Shown: positions 202-7,222, counted from the first letter of the stretch. The stretch is DNA of 7,222 nucleotides from a virus (IMGVR_UViG_2582580934_000004:1-7222); one strand, 5' to 3'. Notes: generated from the sequence alone by a model not told the origin. Program-made: numbers and translations.

Positions 202-255
202 TGCGTACTGTATTGCCACGTTTTTTTCGCGTCAGAATTATGGCGGGGCGTACGG

Positions 256-290
256 GGCCGACTTCGGTCGGGCCGGATTCTTTGCTCTCC
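256..290 (+). terminator. Hairpin with a UUCG-type tetraloop followed by a U-rich tract; possible second terminator or structured leader
   Basis: ccgac (258-262) / gtcgg (267-271) around loop ttcg (263-266), extendable with one bulge; followed by ggattctttgctct. Confidence 0.3.
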
Positions 291-396
291 GGTGTTCTTG
301 TGTAGCCGGTACTGCGAACCTCGTACGTCTCGCCACCCACAGTTTCGCAGCTCTGGATGGTGAGTTTTCACAACTTACTACACAAGGGGCCACACC

Positions 397-1089: not shown

Positions 1090-1471
1090 CGGGATACCAG
1101 CCATGAGTGCGTTTGCATGGAGCTGGAATGAACCACGACCAGCTATTGATCCGGCCAGATTTACGGAGCGCAGGCAGGAAACTGAAACCGACCTGCAACG
1201 CGCCATCCGTTACTACCTTGAGGCGGACAAAAGGGCACAGGAAGAACAGGAAGCGAAGGAAGAAGCCTTTTTCGCACAATCCGCCATGGGTAAAAAACTC
1301 ATGGCATCCCTTGAGGAAGCCGGACAGCGTGAAAAGCTGGCTCAGAGCATCATCAGTAAGCGCCGGGCAACAGAACAAGACCCGGTAGCCCGTGCCTTTG
1401 CCACACTGAAGGCGCTTCCCGTTTATCTGCGAGAACCTCTGAGCCGCCACCTCTCTTTCCTGCGCAAAAAA

Positions 1472-1523
1472 CAGGAAGCCGATCGCCGGAAAGGAAGCAG
1501 GAAGCCGATCGTCAGAAAGGCAA
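1472..1523 (+). repeat. Imperfect tandem duplication, 2 x 26 bp (22/26 identical)
   Basis: caggaagccgatcg is exact at 1472-1485 and 1498-1511. Deleting one 26-bp unit joins gpA frame 2 to frame 1, giving ...LRKKQEADRQKGKKSWQAERY... Confidence 0.85.
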
Positions 1524-2895
1524 AAAGAGCTGGCAGGCGGAACGCTATGCACGCGGAACCCTGCGCAAAATATTCGAACGTCTGGACCGCACCGACAGCC
1601 GCTGGCTGACACCGGGTTATCGCTCCCTTGCCGGACGCGAACGCCTGGATGATTTGCTTTACCTGCCGCAGCTCAACAAGCACCAGATACAGACGCTGGC
1701 CACCATGACGGCGGCGATGTTCAGCAGCACCTTCGAAAAACTCTGCGATGGCTTTGGCGCGACCGATGGTGAGCTGACCATGGAGGTGGCACTGAAGGCG
1801 TATCAGATGCTGGCCCGCATGGCGTTACACCTGCACGCCATGCCTCCACATTATGACGCACTGACAACAGACAAAGACCGCAAGAACGAACCGGACACGG
1901 AACTGCTGCCGGGCGCAATCCTCCGCCTGACCTGTGCGGAATGGTGGAAACGCAAACTGTGGCTGTTACGTTGCGAGTGGCGGGAAGAACAACTCCGCGC
2001 CGCCTGTCTGGTTTCCAGAAAAACATCGCCCTATCTGAGCCAGGACGCGTTAAGCGAGTTTCGCGCACAGCGCGAGAAAACACGCGATTTCCTGAAAAGT
2101 TTCATGCTGGAAAACGAAGACGGGTTCACGATTGATCTCGAGACGGTGTATTACGCGGGAGTAAGTAACCCGGTTCACCGTAAGGCAGAAATGATGGCCA
2201 CCATGAAGGGGCTGGAACTTCTGGCCGAAGCCCGTGGCGACAGAGCGGTGTTTCTGACTGTCACCTGCCCGTCAAAATACCACGCAACAACGGAGAACGG
2301 TCATCCGAATCCCAAATGGAACGGGGCCACTATGCGCGACTCCAGCGATTACCTGGTTAACACGTTTTTTGCGGCGGTCCGCAAAAAACTGAACCGCGAC
2401 GGCCTGCGCTGGTATGGCATCCGCACGGTGGAGCCTCACCATGACGGCACCGTGCACTGGCATATGATGGTCTTTGCTCATCCGGAAGAAATCGACAGCA
2501 TCGTGGCCATCACCCGCGATATTGCCATTCAGGAAGACCGCCACGAGCTGGGCAATGATATTACTCCGCGCTTTAAGGTGGAGTATGTCGACGGCTCAAA
2601 AGGCACACCAACCAGCTACATCGCCACCTACATCGGAAAGAACCTGGACAGCCGCGCCGTGGATGGCATCGACCCAAAAACGGGCAAGCCACGCGTTGAC
2701 CACGAAACCGGAAAATCAATGGCCGAGAGCGTGGAACGCGCCATCGGCTGGGCGCGCCTTCACCGGGTCCGCCAGTTCCAGTTCTTTGGCATTCCCTCCC
2801 GTCAGGTGTGGCGTGAACTCCGCCGCCTTGCCAGCCAGATGGCACGCAACCCGGAAGGCCCGCAACGGCTGAAGGATGACGCAATGGATGCGGTA

Positions 2896-2927
2896 CTCGC
2901 TGCCGCTGATTCTTGCTGCCGCTGATG
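2896..2927 (+). repeat. Imperfect tandem duplication, 2 x 16 bp (14/16 identical)
   Basis: gctgccgctgat is exact at 2899-2910 and 2915-2926. Deleting one unit joins frame 1 to frame 2, giving ...DAVLAAADAGCFATYIEKQ... Confidence 0.85.
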
Positions 2928-3239
2928 CCGGGTGTTTTGCCACCTACATTGAAAAACAGGGTGGCGTACTTGTTCCGCGCAAGGACTACCTGATTCGCAC
3001 AGCCTACGACCTCGCAGATGAGCTGAACGATTACGGCGAACAGAGTGTACAGATTTACGGGATCTGGTCGCCACTCATCGGGGAATCCTCCCGTGTGTGC
3101 ACGCACCCGGATAACTGGAAGCTGGTAAGACGTAAACCGGAAGCGGAAGACAGCACCCACGAAAATGGTTTTGACCTTCAGGGCGGCCCTGCCGCCCCTT
3201 GGACTCGTGGCAATAACTGTCCCCGTGTACAGGAAACGG

Positions 3240-3297
3240 ACAACAACGGGACAGAACAGCCGGAAGAAACAACAACGGGACAGAACAGCCGAAAGAA
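3240..3297 (+). repeat. Imperfect tandem duplication, 2 x 29 bp (28/29 identical)
   Basis: acaacaacgggacagaacagccg at 3240-3262 and 3269-3291. Deleting one unit joins gpA frame 2 to frame 1. Confidence 0.85.
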
Positions 3298-3940
3298 CGG
3301 CCAGCACCGTGGCCGCAGCTCCCTGACGGCGTTGAAGTGAACGAATGGATGCGCTCACTGAAACGGCACGAACGCCGGGCGCTGATGCGTTCGCTTCGTG
3401 ACAAACAGGCAAAAAACAGCAGTGATGAAATGCAGAGCTGGACACAGAGCCGCAAACAGCAGCGGCCTTTGCCTGATAACCACGAATTACTCGCTAAAGA
3501 ATGGCGGGAATCTGCCGAATCTCTCGGCCTGCATATCGGTGAACAGCAGATGCAGCACCTGTTACGGGGCGGCAGCCTGTACGTTGACGGCAGCATCATT
3601 GCACCGCAGGGATTTGAAATTGTACGCAAACCGGATACCCGCCCGGACAGCCGGATCACGCAGCTCTGGCAGCGCCTGAGCCGTAACCACGGCGTAAGCA
3701 GCACGGAGATCCGCCATAACCCGGTCGCCAGCTATCTGGAACAGCTGGGGGCATCAGACCCCGAAGCCGCCGCACGCCTGGCATCCACACTTCAGCAGGA
3801 CCAGAACACCATGAAAACACCCGTTACCGTGCTTTCTGACATGCTGCGCGCCATCCGCGACGCAGAGCACGCACAGAGAATCAGTGAAACCACTGAACGC
3901 GCCCGCCGCAAAGCAGACCTGCTGCGGGGTGGCCTGACCA

Positions 3941-4060
3941 GTGGAAACAAAAAACAGACAGAAACGGGATTCACAAATCCCGTAAATGAGCAAAAAACGC
4001 GCCGCGATATATGAAGCGCGCATAAAACAGGCAAAAACGGGATTTCAGAATCCCGTAAAC
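3941..4060 (+). promoter_or_regulatory. parC-like region: two related ~40-bp units, each with a 20-bp hairpin palindrome, directly upstream of the parM-like gene
   Basis: acgggatt-caca-aatcccgt at 3964-3983 and acgggatt-tcag-aatcccgt at 4037-4056 (perfect 8-bp arms, 73 bp apart), each preceded by an aaaacag..aaa motif. The first lies inside the last codons of the gpA frame. AAGGA RBS at 4078-4082. Confidence 0.4.
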
Positions 4061-4090
4061 GATTAATTAATCAACATAAGGAAAAGCGAC

Positions 4091-5073
4091 ATGAAAATTT
4101 GTATCGACGACGGCTCCACCAACATCAAGCTGGCATGGACTGAGAACGGCGAACGCCGCAACGCCATCAGCCCGAACAGCTTCAAGTCGGAATGGTCTGC
4201 GCCGTTCGGTGGTACGCAGCCCGCGAACTACATGCTTGATGGCGTGCGCTATGGTTTTGATCCGGTCAGCGATCGCTTTGTCCAGACGACCGACACGCAA
4301 TACCAGTACAGCGATGTGAATGTCATTGCCATTCATCACGCGCTGGTCAAATCAGGCATCACGCCACAGGAGGTGGATGTGGTTGTCACCCTGCCACTGA
4401 GCGAGTATTTCGACACAAACGCACAGCCGGACATGGCCAACATCAGCCGCAAAAAAGCGAACGTATCAACCGCAAAAAAGCGAACGTTATGCGCCCGGTG
4501 GAGTACCAGAACGGCGAAGCATTCACTATCCGTAACGTACGGGTTATGCCTGAATCCATTCCGGCTGGCTTTAAAGCACTGGCTGACATGAGTCCGTTTG
4601 AATCCCTGCTGATTGTGGATTTGGGCGGAACCACGCTGGATGTGGCAAAGGTTCAGGGGCAACTGGCAGGTATCAGCCAGGTGTTTTGCGATCCACACGT
4701 AGGCGTTTCTCTGATGGCCAATGCCGTACTGTCGGTGATGGCCACTAACGGTATGCGCACCAGTCACCACATCGCCAATACCATTATCGAACATCGCCAT
4801 GATGAAGCCTGGCTGCGCCAGCACATCCACAATGACGCGCATTACGACAGCCTGATGGCGGTTATTCGTGAAAAGGAAGAAACACTGAAACAACGAGTGA
4901 TCCGCGCGCTGGCGGGTTTTTCGGGTTACGGGCGGGTGATGGTTGTCGGTGGCGGGGCGGAGATTGTGGCACCCGCTATCCGCGAAGCCTGCGGAGTTAA
5001 TGCGACTTTCATCGCGGACGGGGTGCCACAGTTTGCTCTGGTTAATGGGCTGTACGCAATGGACAAGGAGTAA
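4091..5073 (+). pseudogene. parM: ParM/StbA-like actin-family segregation ATPase, split by one frameshift
   Basis: Translation matches plasmid R1 ParM at recalled conserved blocks: ICIDDGSTNIKLAW, ISPNSFK, YSDVNVIAIHHAL, RKKANV, VMPESIPAG, LIVDLGGTTLD, VMVVGGGAEI, FALVNGLYAMDKE. Frame 2 (4091 to about 4464) switches to frame 1 (about 4465-5073) at a 23-bp tandem duplication. Without the duplication the product is 319 aa, about the size of R1 ParM. Confidence 0.8.
4442..4487 (+). repeat. Imperfect tandem duplication, 2 x 23 bp (22/23 identical)
   Basis: atcagccgcaaaaaagcgaacgt / atcaaccgcaaaaaagcgaacgt. Deleting one unit gives ...ANISRKKANVMRPVEYQNGEAFTIRNVRVMPESIP..., colinear with ParM. Confidence 0.9.
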
Positions 5074-5077
5074 ACCA

Positions 5078-5389
5078 ATGACGACACCAACCAGACGGAT
5101 AAGTTTCTATCTGAAGCCCGTCGCCGTCAAGAACGAAGGCGAAGCATGCGCCTGGCTGGACAGCCTTACACCAGAAGCCCGCAAAAGCGGCCAACGTGTG
5201 GCTTTTCTGGCCGGGCTGGCACTTCTGAAAATGAATCCGGCAGAGGCTTACCGACTGGCTGCATGGGCTGACGATGAGGCGTTATCAGTGACACAAACCA
5301 GGACAGAACGCCCCGCGTCACAGCCAGTACCAACCACACAGATAACCAGTCGGATGGCCGGAAATATCAGGGCGTTATTTCCCGAATAA
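5078..5389 (+). CDS. parR: ParR-like centromere-binding adaptor (103 aa)
   Basis: ATG at 5078 preceded by AAGGAG at 5065-5070, starting 4 nt after the parM stop (TAA 5071-5073). RRISFYLKP....RVAFLAGLALL resembles the N-terminal DNA-binding region of R1 ParR (recalled). The ORF track extends this frame to ATG 4943 inside parM, which is unlikely to be the real start. Confidence 0.6.
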   Translation: MTTPTRRISFYLKPVAVKNEGEACAWLDSLTPEARKSGQRVAFLAGLALLKMNPAEAYRLAAWADDEALSVTQTRTERPASQPVPTTQITSRMAGNIRALFPE

Positions 5390-5394
5390 CACAA

Positions 5395-5418
5395 CATCAG
5401 GGCGCATCCGCCCTGATG
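5395..5418 (+). promoter_or_regulatory. Inverted repeat with 10-bp arms (catcagggcg / cgccctgatg) between parR and the next gene; operator or weak terminator
   Basis: Perfect 10-bp arms around a 4-nt loop. The core ATCAGGGCG also occurs as a direct copy at 5366-5374. Followed by actttaat, which is only weakly U-rich. Confidence 0.35.
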
Positions 5419-5452
5419 ACTTTAATCCGGGAACATAAACAAGGGGGACACA

Positions 5453-5785
5453 ATGCAACACATTGACAGAGAAAAAGCGCAGCGACTGATTGAGCGGATG
5501 GAAGCGCTGGCGAAAGAAGAAAATGTCAACATCCAAAAAATAGCTGAATGTGGCCAGATAGTTCTTCGTCGTGAAAAAGACCTCAAACAACTGATGTCTG
5601 GCGAAACCAGCAAAACATGGACTTCAGGCGAGGAGACGATTTATTGCAGCTTCTGCAATAAATCTCAGTACGAAGTCACAAAGGTGATTGCCGGACCGTC
5701 TGTTTGCATCTGCAATGAGTGCGTGGATTTGTGCAATGAAATTATCAGGAGAGAAGTGACAGACAAAAAGGGAAAAAACGCATGA
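5453..5785 (+). CDS. Small protein (110 aa) with a C-terminal ClpX-type C4 zinc-finger (ClpX N-domain-like) and an unrelated ~60-aa N-terminal region
   Basis: ATG at 5453 with aaggggga RBS at 5441-5448. Residues [39 protein letters not shown] closely resemble the E. coli ClpX zinc-binding domain (recalled as [40 protein letters not shown]), including all four Cys. No AAA+ domain follows. Confidence 0.75.
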
Positions 5786-6120
5786 ACAGAAAACAAAAAC
5801 AAGAGTTGAAATACTTTTTACGTAAAGAAATTGCCAGGCTTGAAGATGCAGAATCACAATCATCAGAAATTCCGTTCGGAATGGATATCAACGACGCCCG
5901 TATGCTCCAGGCATACCGCATAGCTCAGGCTGCACTACAGGCAAAACCGTCAGATGGACTGGTTAGAGCAGTACGATTCTATGAACTGGTAAAGCGTGAG
6001 AATCCGCCAGCCGAAACCGGAGCATGGAAAGACGCTGTTGACTGGGTACTCAAAGAGGCTTGTCAGGTTGTAAACACTGGCATCAAAGGAGACCTAGCCC
6101 AGCCTGCATCAAAGCTATAG
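5782..6120 (+). CDS. Hypothetical protein (112 aa), translationally coupled to the ClpX-zinc-finger gene
   Basis: ATG at 5782 overlaps the upstream TGA (5783-5785) as ATGA; aaggga about 8 nt upstream; stop TAG at 6118-6120 followed by a strong terminator. No family recognised. Confidence 0.6.
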
Positions 6121-6130
6121 AAATGAGCCA

Positions 6131-6160
6131 AAACGCCCTCTTCCAGGGCGTTTATTTCAA
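6131..6160 (+). terminator. Rho-independent terminator ending the + strand cargo operon
   Basis: Perfect 9-bp stem aaacgccct (6131-6139) / agggcgttt (6145-6153), 5-nt loop, then atttcaa; begins 11 nt after the stop at 6120. Confidence 0.7.
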
Positions 6161-6190
6161 TGCACAATAGTGCACAAATTTGCACAATTT
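6161..6190. repeat. Three helically phased TGCACAA repeats (10-bp period) followed by a T-run
   Basis: TGCACAA at 6161-6167, 6171-6177 and 6181-6187; a fourth copy at 6253-6259. Confidence 0.8.
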
Positions 6191-6230
6191 TTTTGAACGA
6201 CTTTTTGCCCTTCCGGCCCGCGTGGCAGTT

Positions 6231-6249
6231 GGATCCGTCAAGGATCCGT
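6231..6249. repeat. GGATCCGT direct repeat x2 (11-bp period)
   Basis: ggatccgt at 6231-6238 and 6242-6249; the same 8-mer recurs inside the portal gene at 7082-7089. Confidence 0.6.
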
Positions 6250-6310
6250 GCGTGCACAAAAAAACGCGCTTTTTCTGCGCGCAGGTGACGGGGGAACAGC
6301 CCGCGTTTCA

Positions 6311-6318
6311 GGGGGGGG
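6311..6318. repeat. Homopolymeric G8 tract adjacent to a small hairpin (gggaa-tagcg-ttccc)
   Basis: Eight consecutive G at 6311-6318 in non-coding DNA; gggaa (6316-6320) pairs with ttccc (6326-6330). Confidence 0.85.
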
Positions 6319-6362
6319 AATAGCGTTCCCTTAACGATGTCGCAGCGACACGACAGAATGGC

Positions 6363-6393
6363 CGTATTTCTCACGCTGAGCGTGAAAAATACG
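6363..6393. other. 31-bp near-perfect palindrome (14-bp arms, one mismatch, 3-bp centre)
   Basis: cgtatttctcacgc-tga-gcgtgaaaaatacg; the reverse complement of the left arm differs from the right arm at one position. Confidence 0.8.
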
Positions 6394-6561
6394 TGAGGGA
6401 TTCTGGTTTGATGGGGTGAAAGGTAAGGCCGTCAAAATCGCACTGAGGCGGCGAGAACATGCAGTCAGCGCAGTGGGATTGCGTAAGAGTCTGACCGTCG
6501 ATGATGGCAATAAGCAGGAAAGCGTCGTGAAATTATCTGACTGATACAGGAGCTGGAGAGT

Positions 6562-6586
6562 CGGGGCATAAATTTTTTATGCCCCG
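6562..6586. terminator. Inverted repeat cggggcataaa / tttatgccccg downstream of the portal gene; weak candidate terminator
   Basis: Perfect 11-bp arms with a 3-nt loop; GC-rich base and AT-rich top; no clear U-tract after it on either strand. Confidence 0.3.
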
Positions 6587-6636
6587 GCGAAGCAGCAGAC
6601 AAGCGAAGCGCGTCAGGATGTGGGCTGGGTGTCCAG

Positions 6637-6710
6637 CAGTGCATAAGGGTTAAAGCGGATCACCTCTATCTAACAGTGCGTAAGGGTTAAAGCGGATCAC
6701 CTCTTCGCCA
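6637..6710. repeat. Imperfect tandem duplication with a 37-bp period across the 3' end of the portal gene
   Basis: cagtgcataagggttaaagcggatcacctct (6637-6667) against cagtgcgtaagggttaaagcggatcacctct (6674-6704), 30/31 identical. The - strand stop codon (6650-6652) lies inside the first copy. Confidence 0.85.
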
Positions 6711-7222
6711 AGCCAGTCATTGATGTGCTTCATGGCCTCCATGACGGGCATCAGCTCGTTAATTGCGTAAACCCGCGCGGCCTTCTCCACATCACCAAAC
6801 GCACTTTTTTCACCCGGCATCGCCCCCATCAGTTGCGGCGGAACGCGGTGCGCAGCCAGTACATCATCACGGGATGCCGCCTTAACATTCATGAACTCAT
6901 CCTTTGCGGTGATCTGCTGGAACGGCAAAATTTGCACACCTTCTTTGCCCCCGTTGGGCGCATGAATGAGCACGTTTTTAAACGCACCACCACCACGTGC
7001 ACCCTGTAACGTTTCTTTCAGGGAGTCCATGCTTTCGCGGTTTACCTGCGCTGCACCGATGTAGATGATGCACCCGGCGTGGGATCCGTTGTCGTAGTAC
7101 AGTTTTCTGAACATGTCCGCCGAATGAGAAAGGCTGGCTGAGAGTAATGCGCCAAGATATTCCGGCATGCCGTAGATTTCCTGGTTAATATCCGGATTCA
7201 TCAGGTGGCACACTTTGCCAGG
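6650..7222 (-). CDS. Portal protein (P2 gpQ-like), 3' portion; the 5' end lies beyond the window
   Basis: The - strand translation (NPDINQEIYGMPEYL...YYDNGSHAG...SRDDVLAAHRVPPQLMG...FGDVEKAARV...NDWLGEEVIRF) resembles P2-family portal proteins as recalled. It is convergent with gpA, as expected for the A-cos-Q arrangement. The C-terminal codons run through the 37-bp duplication. Confidence 0.7.
   Translation of the reverse strand, partial: PGKVCHLMNPDINQEIYGMPEYLGALLSASLSHSADMFRKLYYDNGSHAGCIIYIGAAQVNRESMDSLKETLQGARGGGAFKNVLIHAPNGGKEGVQILPFQQITAKDEFMNVKAASRDDVLAAHRVPPQLMGAMPGEKSAFGDVEKAARVYAINELMPVMEAMKHINDWLGEEVIRFNPYALLDRGDPL

Follow-up and report, generated by a model that had tools for sequence, protein, structure and literature searches.

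Here, we propose that the interval between the replication endonuclease gene gpA and the portal gene of a 7222-base viral sequence (the entire draft contig AYJZ01000063.1 of assembly GCA_000511465.1, hereafter the window) is very likely the known gpA-gpQ accessory locus of a P88-type (Xuanwuvirus, Peduoviridae) prophage, and that it is organised in three layers. The first would be a lineage-fixed type II partition cassette of the R1 type (parM and parR, together parMR). The second, a variable slot on the strand of the early operon, would span about 0.7 kb and hold accessory "moron"-type genes, here an apparent mimic of the zinc-binding domain (ZBD) of ClpX and a small protein with a domain shared with ead/Ea22-like proteins. 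The third would be a packaging region, made of iterons and a candidate cos site, between a terminator of the early strand (6134-6158) and a terminator of the portal gene (6562-6586). The locus itself is largely ordinary, in that the hotspot, its parMR occupant, and this exact arrangement have already been catalogued. What we add to the catalogue is the division of the interval into a fixed parMR and a variable part of 0.7 kb, candidates for parC and cos, and a domain analysis of the two small open reading frames (ORFs).

The placement of the locus comes from searches with its two flanks. On the left lies gpA (1103-4014, + strand), which the contig presents as four fragments (1103-1609, 1654-2925, 2876-3340, and 3337-4014) and whose intact relative (L001, 4069-6909; 946 aa) matches Pfam Phage_GPA at 2.7e-130. 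On the right lies the 3′ part of the portal gene (6613-7222, - strand), identified by the PHROG portal family phrog_68 (4e-88) and by Pfam Phage_portal. When gpA and gpQ of phage P2 were compared with the window by tblastn, they aligned at 33% (E=1e-65) and 49% identity (E=2e-61), respectively. An earlier note on this DNA, made from the sequence alone, had named the same two flanks and had placed the interval, by synteny with P2, at the tin/old position that runs from gpA to gpQ next to cos; both assignments are borne out by these matches and by the P2 gene order, in which the equivalent interval contains orf91, tin, old, and cos. Its statement that no tin or old homologue is present also agrees with our searches, as P2 Tin, Old, and Orf91 gave only noise (E>1) by tblastn against the window. 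It had, on the other hand, taken the portal stop at 6650 as the boundary, which is the product of a 37-nt duplication; the stop used by relatives is at 6613-6615, and hence the non-coding stretch before the portal gene is 6121-6612.

The window is 94-97% identical to hundreds of Escherichia coli prophages and to phage P88, and such relatives reach up to 4 copies per genome. The annotated relatives NCTC9022, P88, and FDAARGOS_1288 have one layout in common: genes for a derepression protein, a hypothetical protein, the gpA replication endonuclease, ParM, a ParR-like "plasmid partitioning/stability" protein, a ClpX C4-type zinc finger protein, and another hypothetical protein, followed by about 490 nt of non-coding DNA and then, on the opposite strand, by the portal and large terminase genes. 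An integrase is kept in all sequenced P88-like phages.

The gpA-gpQ interval has been analysed in 18,150 P2-like loci of E. coli and called a hotspot for anti-phage systems (Rousset et al. 2022, PMC9122126), and the GpA-GpQ hotspot is named again in a 2026 study that covers thousands of P2-like prophages (PMC13586616), so that the earlier note was right to describe P2-like accessory loci in this way. Judged by its sequence, the locus studied here is the hotspot catalogued by Rousset et al. (2022), and both the locus and its filling were already known. The commonest occupant, system 1 (Plasmid_stab_B with StbA), was found in 4592 of the 18,150 loci (PMC9122126, Table S5B), and the example sequences given for it are almost identical to the ParM and ParR of the window; the arrangement "StbA + Plasmid_stab_B + zf-C4_ClpX + hypothetical" is listed as well (PMC9122126, Table S5A). 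Two marks of the hotspot, namely the bounding by gpA and gpQ and a variable content between conserved flanks, were found.

How much of the interval is in fact variable? In our survey set of 5426 complete E. coli genomes, the 3′ end of P88-type gpA occurs in 1372 (1534 places) and the parM segment in 1291 (1429 places), meaning that parMR accompanies the P88-type gpA lineage in about 93% of copies and is essentially fixed. By comparison, the segment formed by the gene of the ClpX zinc-finger protein (ClpX-ZF) and the ORF downstream of it is present at ≥80% coverage in only 72 genomes, from which it follows that the real cargo slot is narrower than the gpA-portal interval. Homology to some relatives ends at about 5444-5477 and resumes at 6110-6162, and at least 7 different fillings are found between parR and the conserved right flank. 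These breakpoints and alternative fillings confine the truly variable slot to about 0.7 kb (roughly 5478-6146). Among the alternatives are a single 135-aa ORF (related to the ORF found here, and present without ClpX-ZF), a reverse-strand pair of a DUF4760 protein and a hypothetical protein, ClpX-ZF together with ORFs carrying DUF551, ASCH, or XF1762 domains, and ClpX-ZF beside a reverse-strand phd-doc toxin-antitoxin pair. DUF4760 corresponds to system 3 of Rousset et al., and the published table also holds a filling of an ietAS-like AAA protein with a Peptidase_S8 protein (PMC9122126).

The comparison of the insert across related prophages, which the earlier note had suggested as a check, did therefore reveal content that differs between conserved flanks. 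The idea of a variable cargo locus stands to this extent, with different genes in related prophages, but applies to about 0.7 kb and not to the whole 2.6 kb. The label of "unrelated cargo" does not suit parM-parR, which is the commonest published occupant, is nearly fixed in the P88 lineage, and is concerned with partition rather than defence. For those who screen P88-type prophages for new cargo, the consequence is that only the DNA between parR and the TGCACAA iterons need be searched.

The fixed part of the locus begins with parM (4091-5073, + strand), which encodes an actin-like segregation ATPase of the R1 type. The ParM of the intact relative matches Pfam StbA_N (7.8e-82) and the ParM C-terminal domain (9.9e-69), and aligns from end to end with R1 ParM (1MWK; E=2.8e-92), with roughly half of the residues identical. 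Starting 5 nt after the parM stop, parR (5078-5389, + strand) encodes a parR/stbB-type centromere-binding adaptor of 103 aa, with matches to Pfam Plasmid_stab_B (2e-23) and to PHROG 2515, "partition protein" (7.8e-58); a sequence search of solved structures found no relative of ParR. A ParM ATPase (in the intact relative) and a downstream ParR, two hallmarks of type II partition, are both present. A GC-rich hairpin (5395-5418) follows parR within the conserved left flank. The identities that had been given to parM, parR, and ClpX-ZF are upheld by their Pfam matches, with the correction that a 23-nt duplication splits parM in this contig.

Upstream of parM, a repeat scan found two 42-nt direct repeats (3948-4062), which we consider a candidate parC. 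Each repeat contains the palindrome ACGGGATT-N4-AATCCCGT, with one copy at 3964-3983, within the last part of gpA, and a proximal copy at 4037-4056, 35 nt upstream of the parM start. This palindrome is found exactly 2 times in the window, against an expectation of 0.02, and exactly 2 times in a whole P88-like genome of 34.5 kb, both times in the region upstream of parM; the proximal copy is conserved in 8 relatives. From this we infer that the two palindromes are a candidate ParR operator and centromere. Few phages have a ParM of this type: among 50,697 phage records, it is carried only by Xuanwuvirus, that is by P88-like phages with 95-99% mutual identity, and by phage D6 (47.5%).

In light of these candidate sites, what might the cassette do for the phage? 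We propose that ParR would bind the two palindromes just upstream of parM, repressing the operon and marking the DNA, and that ParM filaments would push apart sister copies of circular phage DNA. ParMR would then stabilise an extrachromosomal genome, be it before integration, after excision, or in a rare plasmid state. One record may capture such a form: NZ_CP148288.1 (L013; 34,461 bp), a single circular "plasmid" from a cat isolate of E. coli, is a whole P88-like genome that carries the integrase, parMR, and all structural genes, and could be either a plasmid-state prophage or an excised replicative form caught by the assembly. The evidence for a plasmid lifestyle is weak, and nothing relevant was found in the literature on partition in P88. 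About a quarter of E. coli genomes contain this integrating phage, which retains a partition system of the R1 type, and the candidate operator palindromes make the question of its purpose testable.

The first gene of the variable slot, ClpX-ZF (5453-5785, + strand; Pfam zf-C4_ClpX, 2.9e-16), encodes a 110-aa protein in which a helical hairpin at the N-terminus (residues 6-49) is connected by a disordered linker to a C4 zinc-binding domain (residues 60-109); its AlphaFold2 (AF2) model has a mean pLDDT of 80, with about 90 for the ZBD. Over residues 57-104, identity to the ZBD of E. coli ClpX is about 75% (1OVX; E=3.8e-18), and the four zinc cysteines (C65, C68, C87, and C90) and the ECVDLCN helix are retained. 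The AAA+ module is absent, with the protein ending after the ZBD helix, and the NCBIfam clpX scores (48.5 and 45.8 bits) are far under the respective cut-offs (370.75 and 359). The N-terminus is an orphan: an exhaustive search of 1.84 billion representatives returned 11 relatives, all from the same family, and full-length members of the family come only from E. coli, E. albertii, and Salmonella. The DNA of the gene is not clpX-like, with only 708 of the 5426 genomes matching the region at megablast level; since no recent copy of clpX can be detected at the DNA level, we read the protein similarity as having been maintained by selection. Codon 85 (5705-5707) specifies Cys in the window (SVCIC), compared with Tyr (SVYIC) in E. 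coli ClpX and in nearly all members of the family. As the DNA of FDAARGOS_1288 is identical across the ClpX-ZF gene, the Cys variant is shared and not a sequencing error. The earlier note had treated ClpX-ZF and the ORF downstream as a pair, which they are in the window, but the pairing is not obligate, as each occurs without the other in relatives; in E. coli RM10740 (L016, 2564-3817), for instance, reverse-strand phd-doc genes follow ClpX-ZF and replace the downstream ORF.

This downstream ORF (5782-6120, + strand), whose start overlaps the ClpX-ZF stop (ATGA), encodes an all-helical protein of 112 aa, modelled by AF2 as four helices (pLDDT 69). No Pfam family matched it, PF13935 (Ead_Ea22) included, and a Foldseek comparison of the model with the PDB gave no match at E≤0.001. 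Its C-terminal 45 aa are nevertheless near-invariant across 591 homologous protein clusters, some of them annotated as ead/Ea22-like, in which the N-termini vary widely. At the nucleotide level, genes of T7-like podophages, lambdoid phages, and phage-plasmids of 50-100 kb match a segment of about 140 nt (5950-6092) with 88-93% identity, which suggests, by its sequence, that the 45-aa domain has been exchanged frequently among unrelated phages. This pattern is the mark of a shuffled early-gene module rather than of a defence effector. Separately, proteins P0072-P0078, of which P0075 (191 aa) is found on 143 contigs, join a StbA_N fragment from the ParM N-terminus to the C-terminal domain of the 112-aa ORF, which implies a recurrent or widespread deletion derivative that has removed most of parM, parR, and ClpX-ZF.

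The non-coding stretch (6121-6612) appears, from its sequence features, to be a conserved packaging region with terminators, and neither cargo nor a partition centromere. The early-strand genes end at a hairpin that resembles an intrinsic terminator (6134-6158, + strand; CGCCCT-CTTCC-AGGGCG, then TTTATTTC), which was read from the sequence and is missing from the output of the terminator and hairpin scan. Three 10-bp TGCACAA iterons (6161-6190; TRF score 35) then mark the start of the conserved right flank, and are followed by a G-rich candidate for the cos cohesive-end sequence, GGTGACGGGGGAACAGCCC (6284-6302). In the alignment with the P2 cos sequence, GGCGAGGCGGGGAAAGCAC, 13 of the 19 positions agree, and the candidate is conserved in Enterobacter phage phiT5282H. 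Shortly after the true portal stop comes a perfect 11-bp hairpin found by the repeat scan (6562-6586; CGGGGCATAAA-TTT-TTTATGCCCCG), which resembles the tQ terminator annotated at the equivalent position in P2. The slot of phiT5282H (Novemvirus) has other cargo, without annotated parMR, and only the block 6154-6305 can still be aligned with this phage (73% identity); within it the iterons are almost identical. In a four-way MAFFT alignment the iterons line up with the TGCAT repeats that precede P2 cos, and they are probably, on this alignment, part of the cos recognition region; when the non-coding stretch was compared directly with the P2 cos junction by BLAST, it gave only matches at the portal end. 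The same iterons had been considered as the centromere of ParR, a role that was ruled out by their conservation in phiT5282H, without annotated parMR, and by their alignment with the repeats upstream of P2 cos. The description of this stretch in the earlier note as repeat-rich holds for three iterons, a few short repeats, and the 37-nt duplication, and its inclusion in the cargo does not hold. Two further features of the stretch are a 42-codon ORF with a GTG start (6416-6544, + strand), annotated as hypothetical in P88 (gp22), P88_4B11, and RM10740, and a run of eight G (6313-6320) that differs by 1 nt in length from relatives and lies just right of the cos candidate, within the most polymorphic part of the non-coding DNA (6227-6472).

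The window differs from its close relatives by six short insertions, each of them an imperfect tandem copy of the neighbouring sequence (16-37 nt) and none of them divisible by 3 in length. A 17-nt duplication at about 1041 alters the end of an ORF (700-1089); those of 26 nt at 1487, 16 nt at 2899, and 29 nt at 3240/3269 (3240-3297) frameshift gpA; that of 23 nt at 4442/4465 (4442-4487) frameshifts parM; and that of 37 nt at 6630/6667 (6630-6666 and 6667-6703) frameshifts the portal C-terminus. Jointly, they turn gpA into four ORFs and parM into two, and shift the apparent portal stop from 6613 to 6650. None of the 1291 complete E. coli genomes that carry parM has the parM duplication, and the exact duplication junctions are found in neither the GTDB species genomes nor the JGI metagenomes. 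The other differences between the window and its relatives resemble ordinary polymorphism. We consider that the six duplications are probably assembly artefacts of a collapsed repeat.

Several observations weigh against the proposal made here. With parM, gpA, and the portal gene all frameshifted in the contig, the cassette as deposited would not work. A total of 1427 of the 1429 parM places are chromosomal (>99%), so that a plasmid lifestyle can at most be rare, and any benefit that partition brings to an integrating phage would be hypothetical. In the candidate parC, the distal palindrome, inside gpA, varies among relatives, and the two palindromes differ from the short-iteron arrays upstream of stbA in phage D6. 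Finally, the cos call rests on 13/19 identity and conservation, and part of the sequence varies among P88-like phages.

These observations bear on two alternative explanations. If the insertions were real, the contig would come from a truly decaying prophage in which gpA, parM, and the portal gene are pseudogenes and not victims of assembly, which we consider quite unlikely. All six insertions do cause frameshifts, and broken copies of parM are known from elsewhere, from the deposited record of at least one phage (503458, which aligns as four pieces) and as the ParM-fragment fusion proteins on 143 contigs, but the lesions here are all of the one odd type, comparable deletions are absent wherever relatives align at ≥95% identity, and substitutions look like ordinary polymorphism. 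Moreover, a stand-alone draft contig of 7.2 kb is typical of a collapsed multi-copy prophage region, in keeping with relatives that reach 4 copies, and the absence of the parM duplication from every complete genome with parM points the same way. The other alternative grants a working cassette and gives it a purpose other than a plasmid state: ParMR might position or separate replicating genomes during lytic growth, or might displace elements with the same centromere by partition incompatibility. Nearly all copies are integrated, and every sequenced P88-like phage retains its integrase, yet ParM is 95-99% identical across phage isolates, which implies selection in an integrating phage and speaks for such a role. 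Against both versions, the closest relatives of known function are plasmid stability systems (R1 ParM and the StbA/StbB of D6). Together with the one complete P88-like genome deposited as a circular plasmid, this leads us to regard a non-plasmid role as rather unlikely, and to retain the stabilisation of an extrachromosomal genome as the more probable purpose of the cassette.

For the two small genes of the slot, the earlier note had offered a role in defence, and our own analysis raises a different one. P1 Phd is a classical substrate of ClpXP, and the isolated ClpX ZBD is dimeric and inhibits N-domain-dependent degradation in trans. By analogy, ClpX-ZF might be a trans-acting mimic of the host ClpX N-domain, a decoy or adaptor that reprograms ClpXP proteolysis for the phage. 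It could form heterodimers with ClpX N-domains or titrate N-domain-dependent substrates and adaptors, and the outcome could be, for example, the stabilisation of a phage regulator or antitoxin, or the blunting of a protease-dependent host response. The idea is compatible with the three-layer locus that we propose, and we hold it tentatively, as possible though doubtful. A ZBD that is confidently modelled, keeps the four cysteines and the ECVDLCN helix at about 75% identity in the absence of DNA-level similarity to clpX, and comes without an AAA+ module speaks for a mimic under selection, and so do the phd-doc genes beside it in one relative. It is nonetheless an analogy, for which the literature searched holds no report of a stand-alone phage ClpX zinc-finger protein; in the window allele, a Cys replaces the Tyr of ClpX and most relatives; the idea leaves the orphan N-terminal domain unexplained; and the family is narrow and dispensable, being found in only about 5% of P88-type prophages. 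If true, ClpX-ZF would be a previously undescribed kind of phage modulator of a host protease, situated within a defence hotspot, and ClpXP would be retuned during the development or lysogeny of P88-type phages, with the turnover of an antitoxin or regulator as a possible target. As an uncharacterised, possible ClpXP modulator, it is the main fresh lead of the locus.

By contrast, it is very unlikely that ClpX-ZF and the 112-aa ORF together constitute a new system for anti-phage defence or superinfection exclusion, as the earlier note had suggested of the slot genes. The suggestion draws on the locus being a documented defence hotspot (PMC9122126, PMC13586616) and on the candidate defence or addiction cargo that occupies the same place elsewhere (DUF4760 with its reverse-strand hypothetical, the ietAS-like AAA with Peptidase_S8, and phd-doc). 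The search for defence systems that the note had called for gave nothing significant: PADLOC (PADLOC-DB v2) returned no match for gpA, ParM, ParR, or ClpX-ZF, and its sole match (PDC-M28C on the 112-aa ORF; E=0.013, 12 bits) is at noise level. There is no recognisable defence system in the locus. In addition, the pairing of the two genes is not obligate; each is small, lies on the strand of the early operon, and encodes no enzymatic or effector domain; and the domain that the 112-aa ORF has in common with ead/Ea22-like early proteins fits accessory genes of the phage life cycle better than immunity expressed from a prophage.

Outside the interval, Rfam identified an isrK Hfq-binding RNA (64.1 bits) and a C4 antisense RNA (73.9 bits) at 126-200 and 236-340 (+ strand), respectively, with the "derepression protein" ORF (397-627; Pfam PF25738) directly downstream. 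Together they look like an antisense-controlled antirepressor module in the style of P1/P7 immI, in the early region of a P2-like phage. Within 4015-6650, Rfam found zero RNA families, and a tRNA search found none.

How does the locus compare with known systems? Set against the gpA-gpQ hotspot of Rousset et al. (2022), it has the same flanks, the same cos-proximal position, the proteins of system 1, and a listed arrangement, with no substantive difference. With the tin-old locus of P2 (NC_001895) it shares its position after gene A and before cos and the opposite-strand gene Q, along with TGCA-type repeats and, as a candidate here, a G-rich cos upstream of Q. It differs in being without homologues of tin, old, and orf91, in the orientation of its cargo (co-oriented with gpA, whereas the P2 cargo is transcribed leftward from its own promoter), and in a gpA that is only 33% identical to that of P2 and about 185 aa longer.

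The cassette resembles the type II ParMRC systems of R1/NR1 in its end-to-end ParM, its Plasmid_stab_B ParR, the order of parM and parR, and a repeat-bearing upstream region. The replicon that hosts it is, unlike theirs, an integrating phage, and the candidate site is a pair of 20-bp palindromes at a distance of 73 bp, the distal one within gpA, and not a series of short direct iterons. The circular 91-kb phage D6, which has P1-like genes, likewise has a ParM (47.5% identical) followed by a StbB gene, and carries TCTCA-type iterons upstream of stbA where the P88-type phages have palindromes. The P88-type phages integrate, whereas we take D6, from the title of a paper, to be a plasmid prophage.

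In the slot, the 112-aa ORF shares the near-invariant C-terminal domain of 45 residues with the ead/Ea22-like early proteins of lambdoid phages (PF13935), and differs from them in having no PF13935 match and in being without the central segment of most relatives. ClpX-ZF has the C4 treble-clef of the E. coli ClpX N-domain (PDB 1OVX, 2DS5-8), with about 75% identity over 48 residues and the helix ECVDLCN(D/E)II. Whereas ClpX joins this domain to an AAA+ unfoldase, the prophage-encoded protein is without the unfoldase and carries instead an orphan helical N-terminus of 55 residues.

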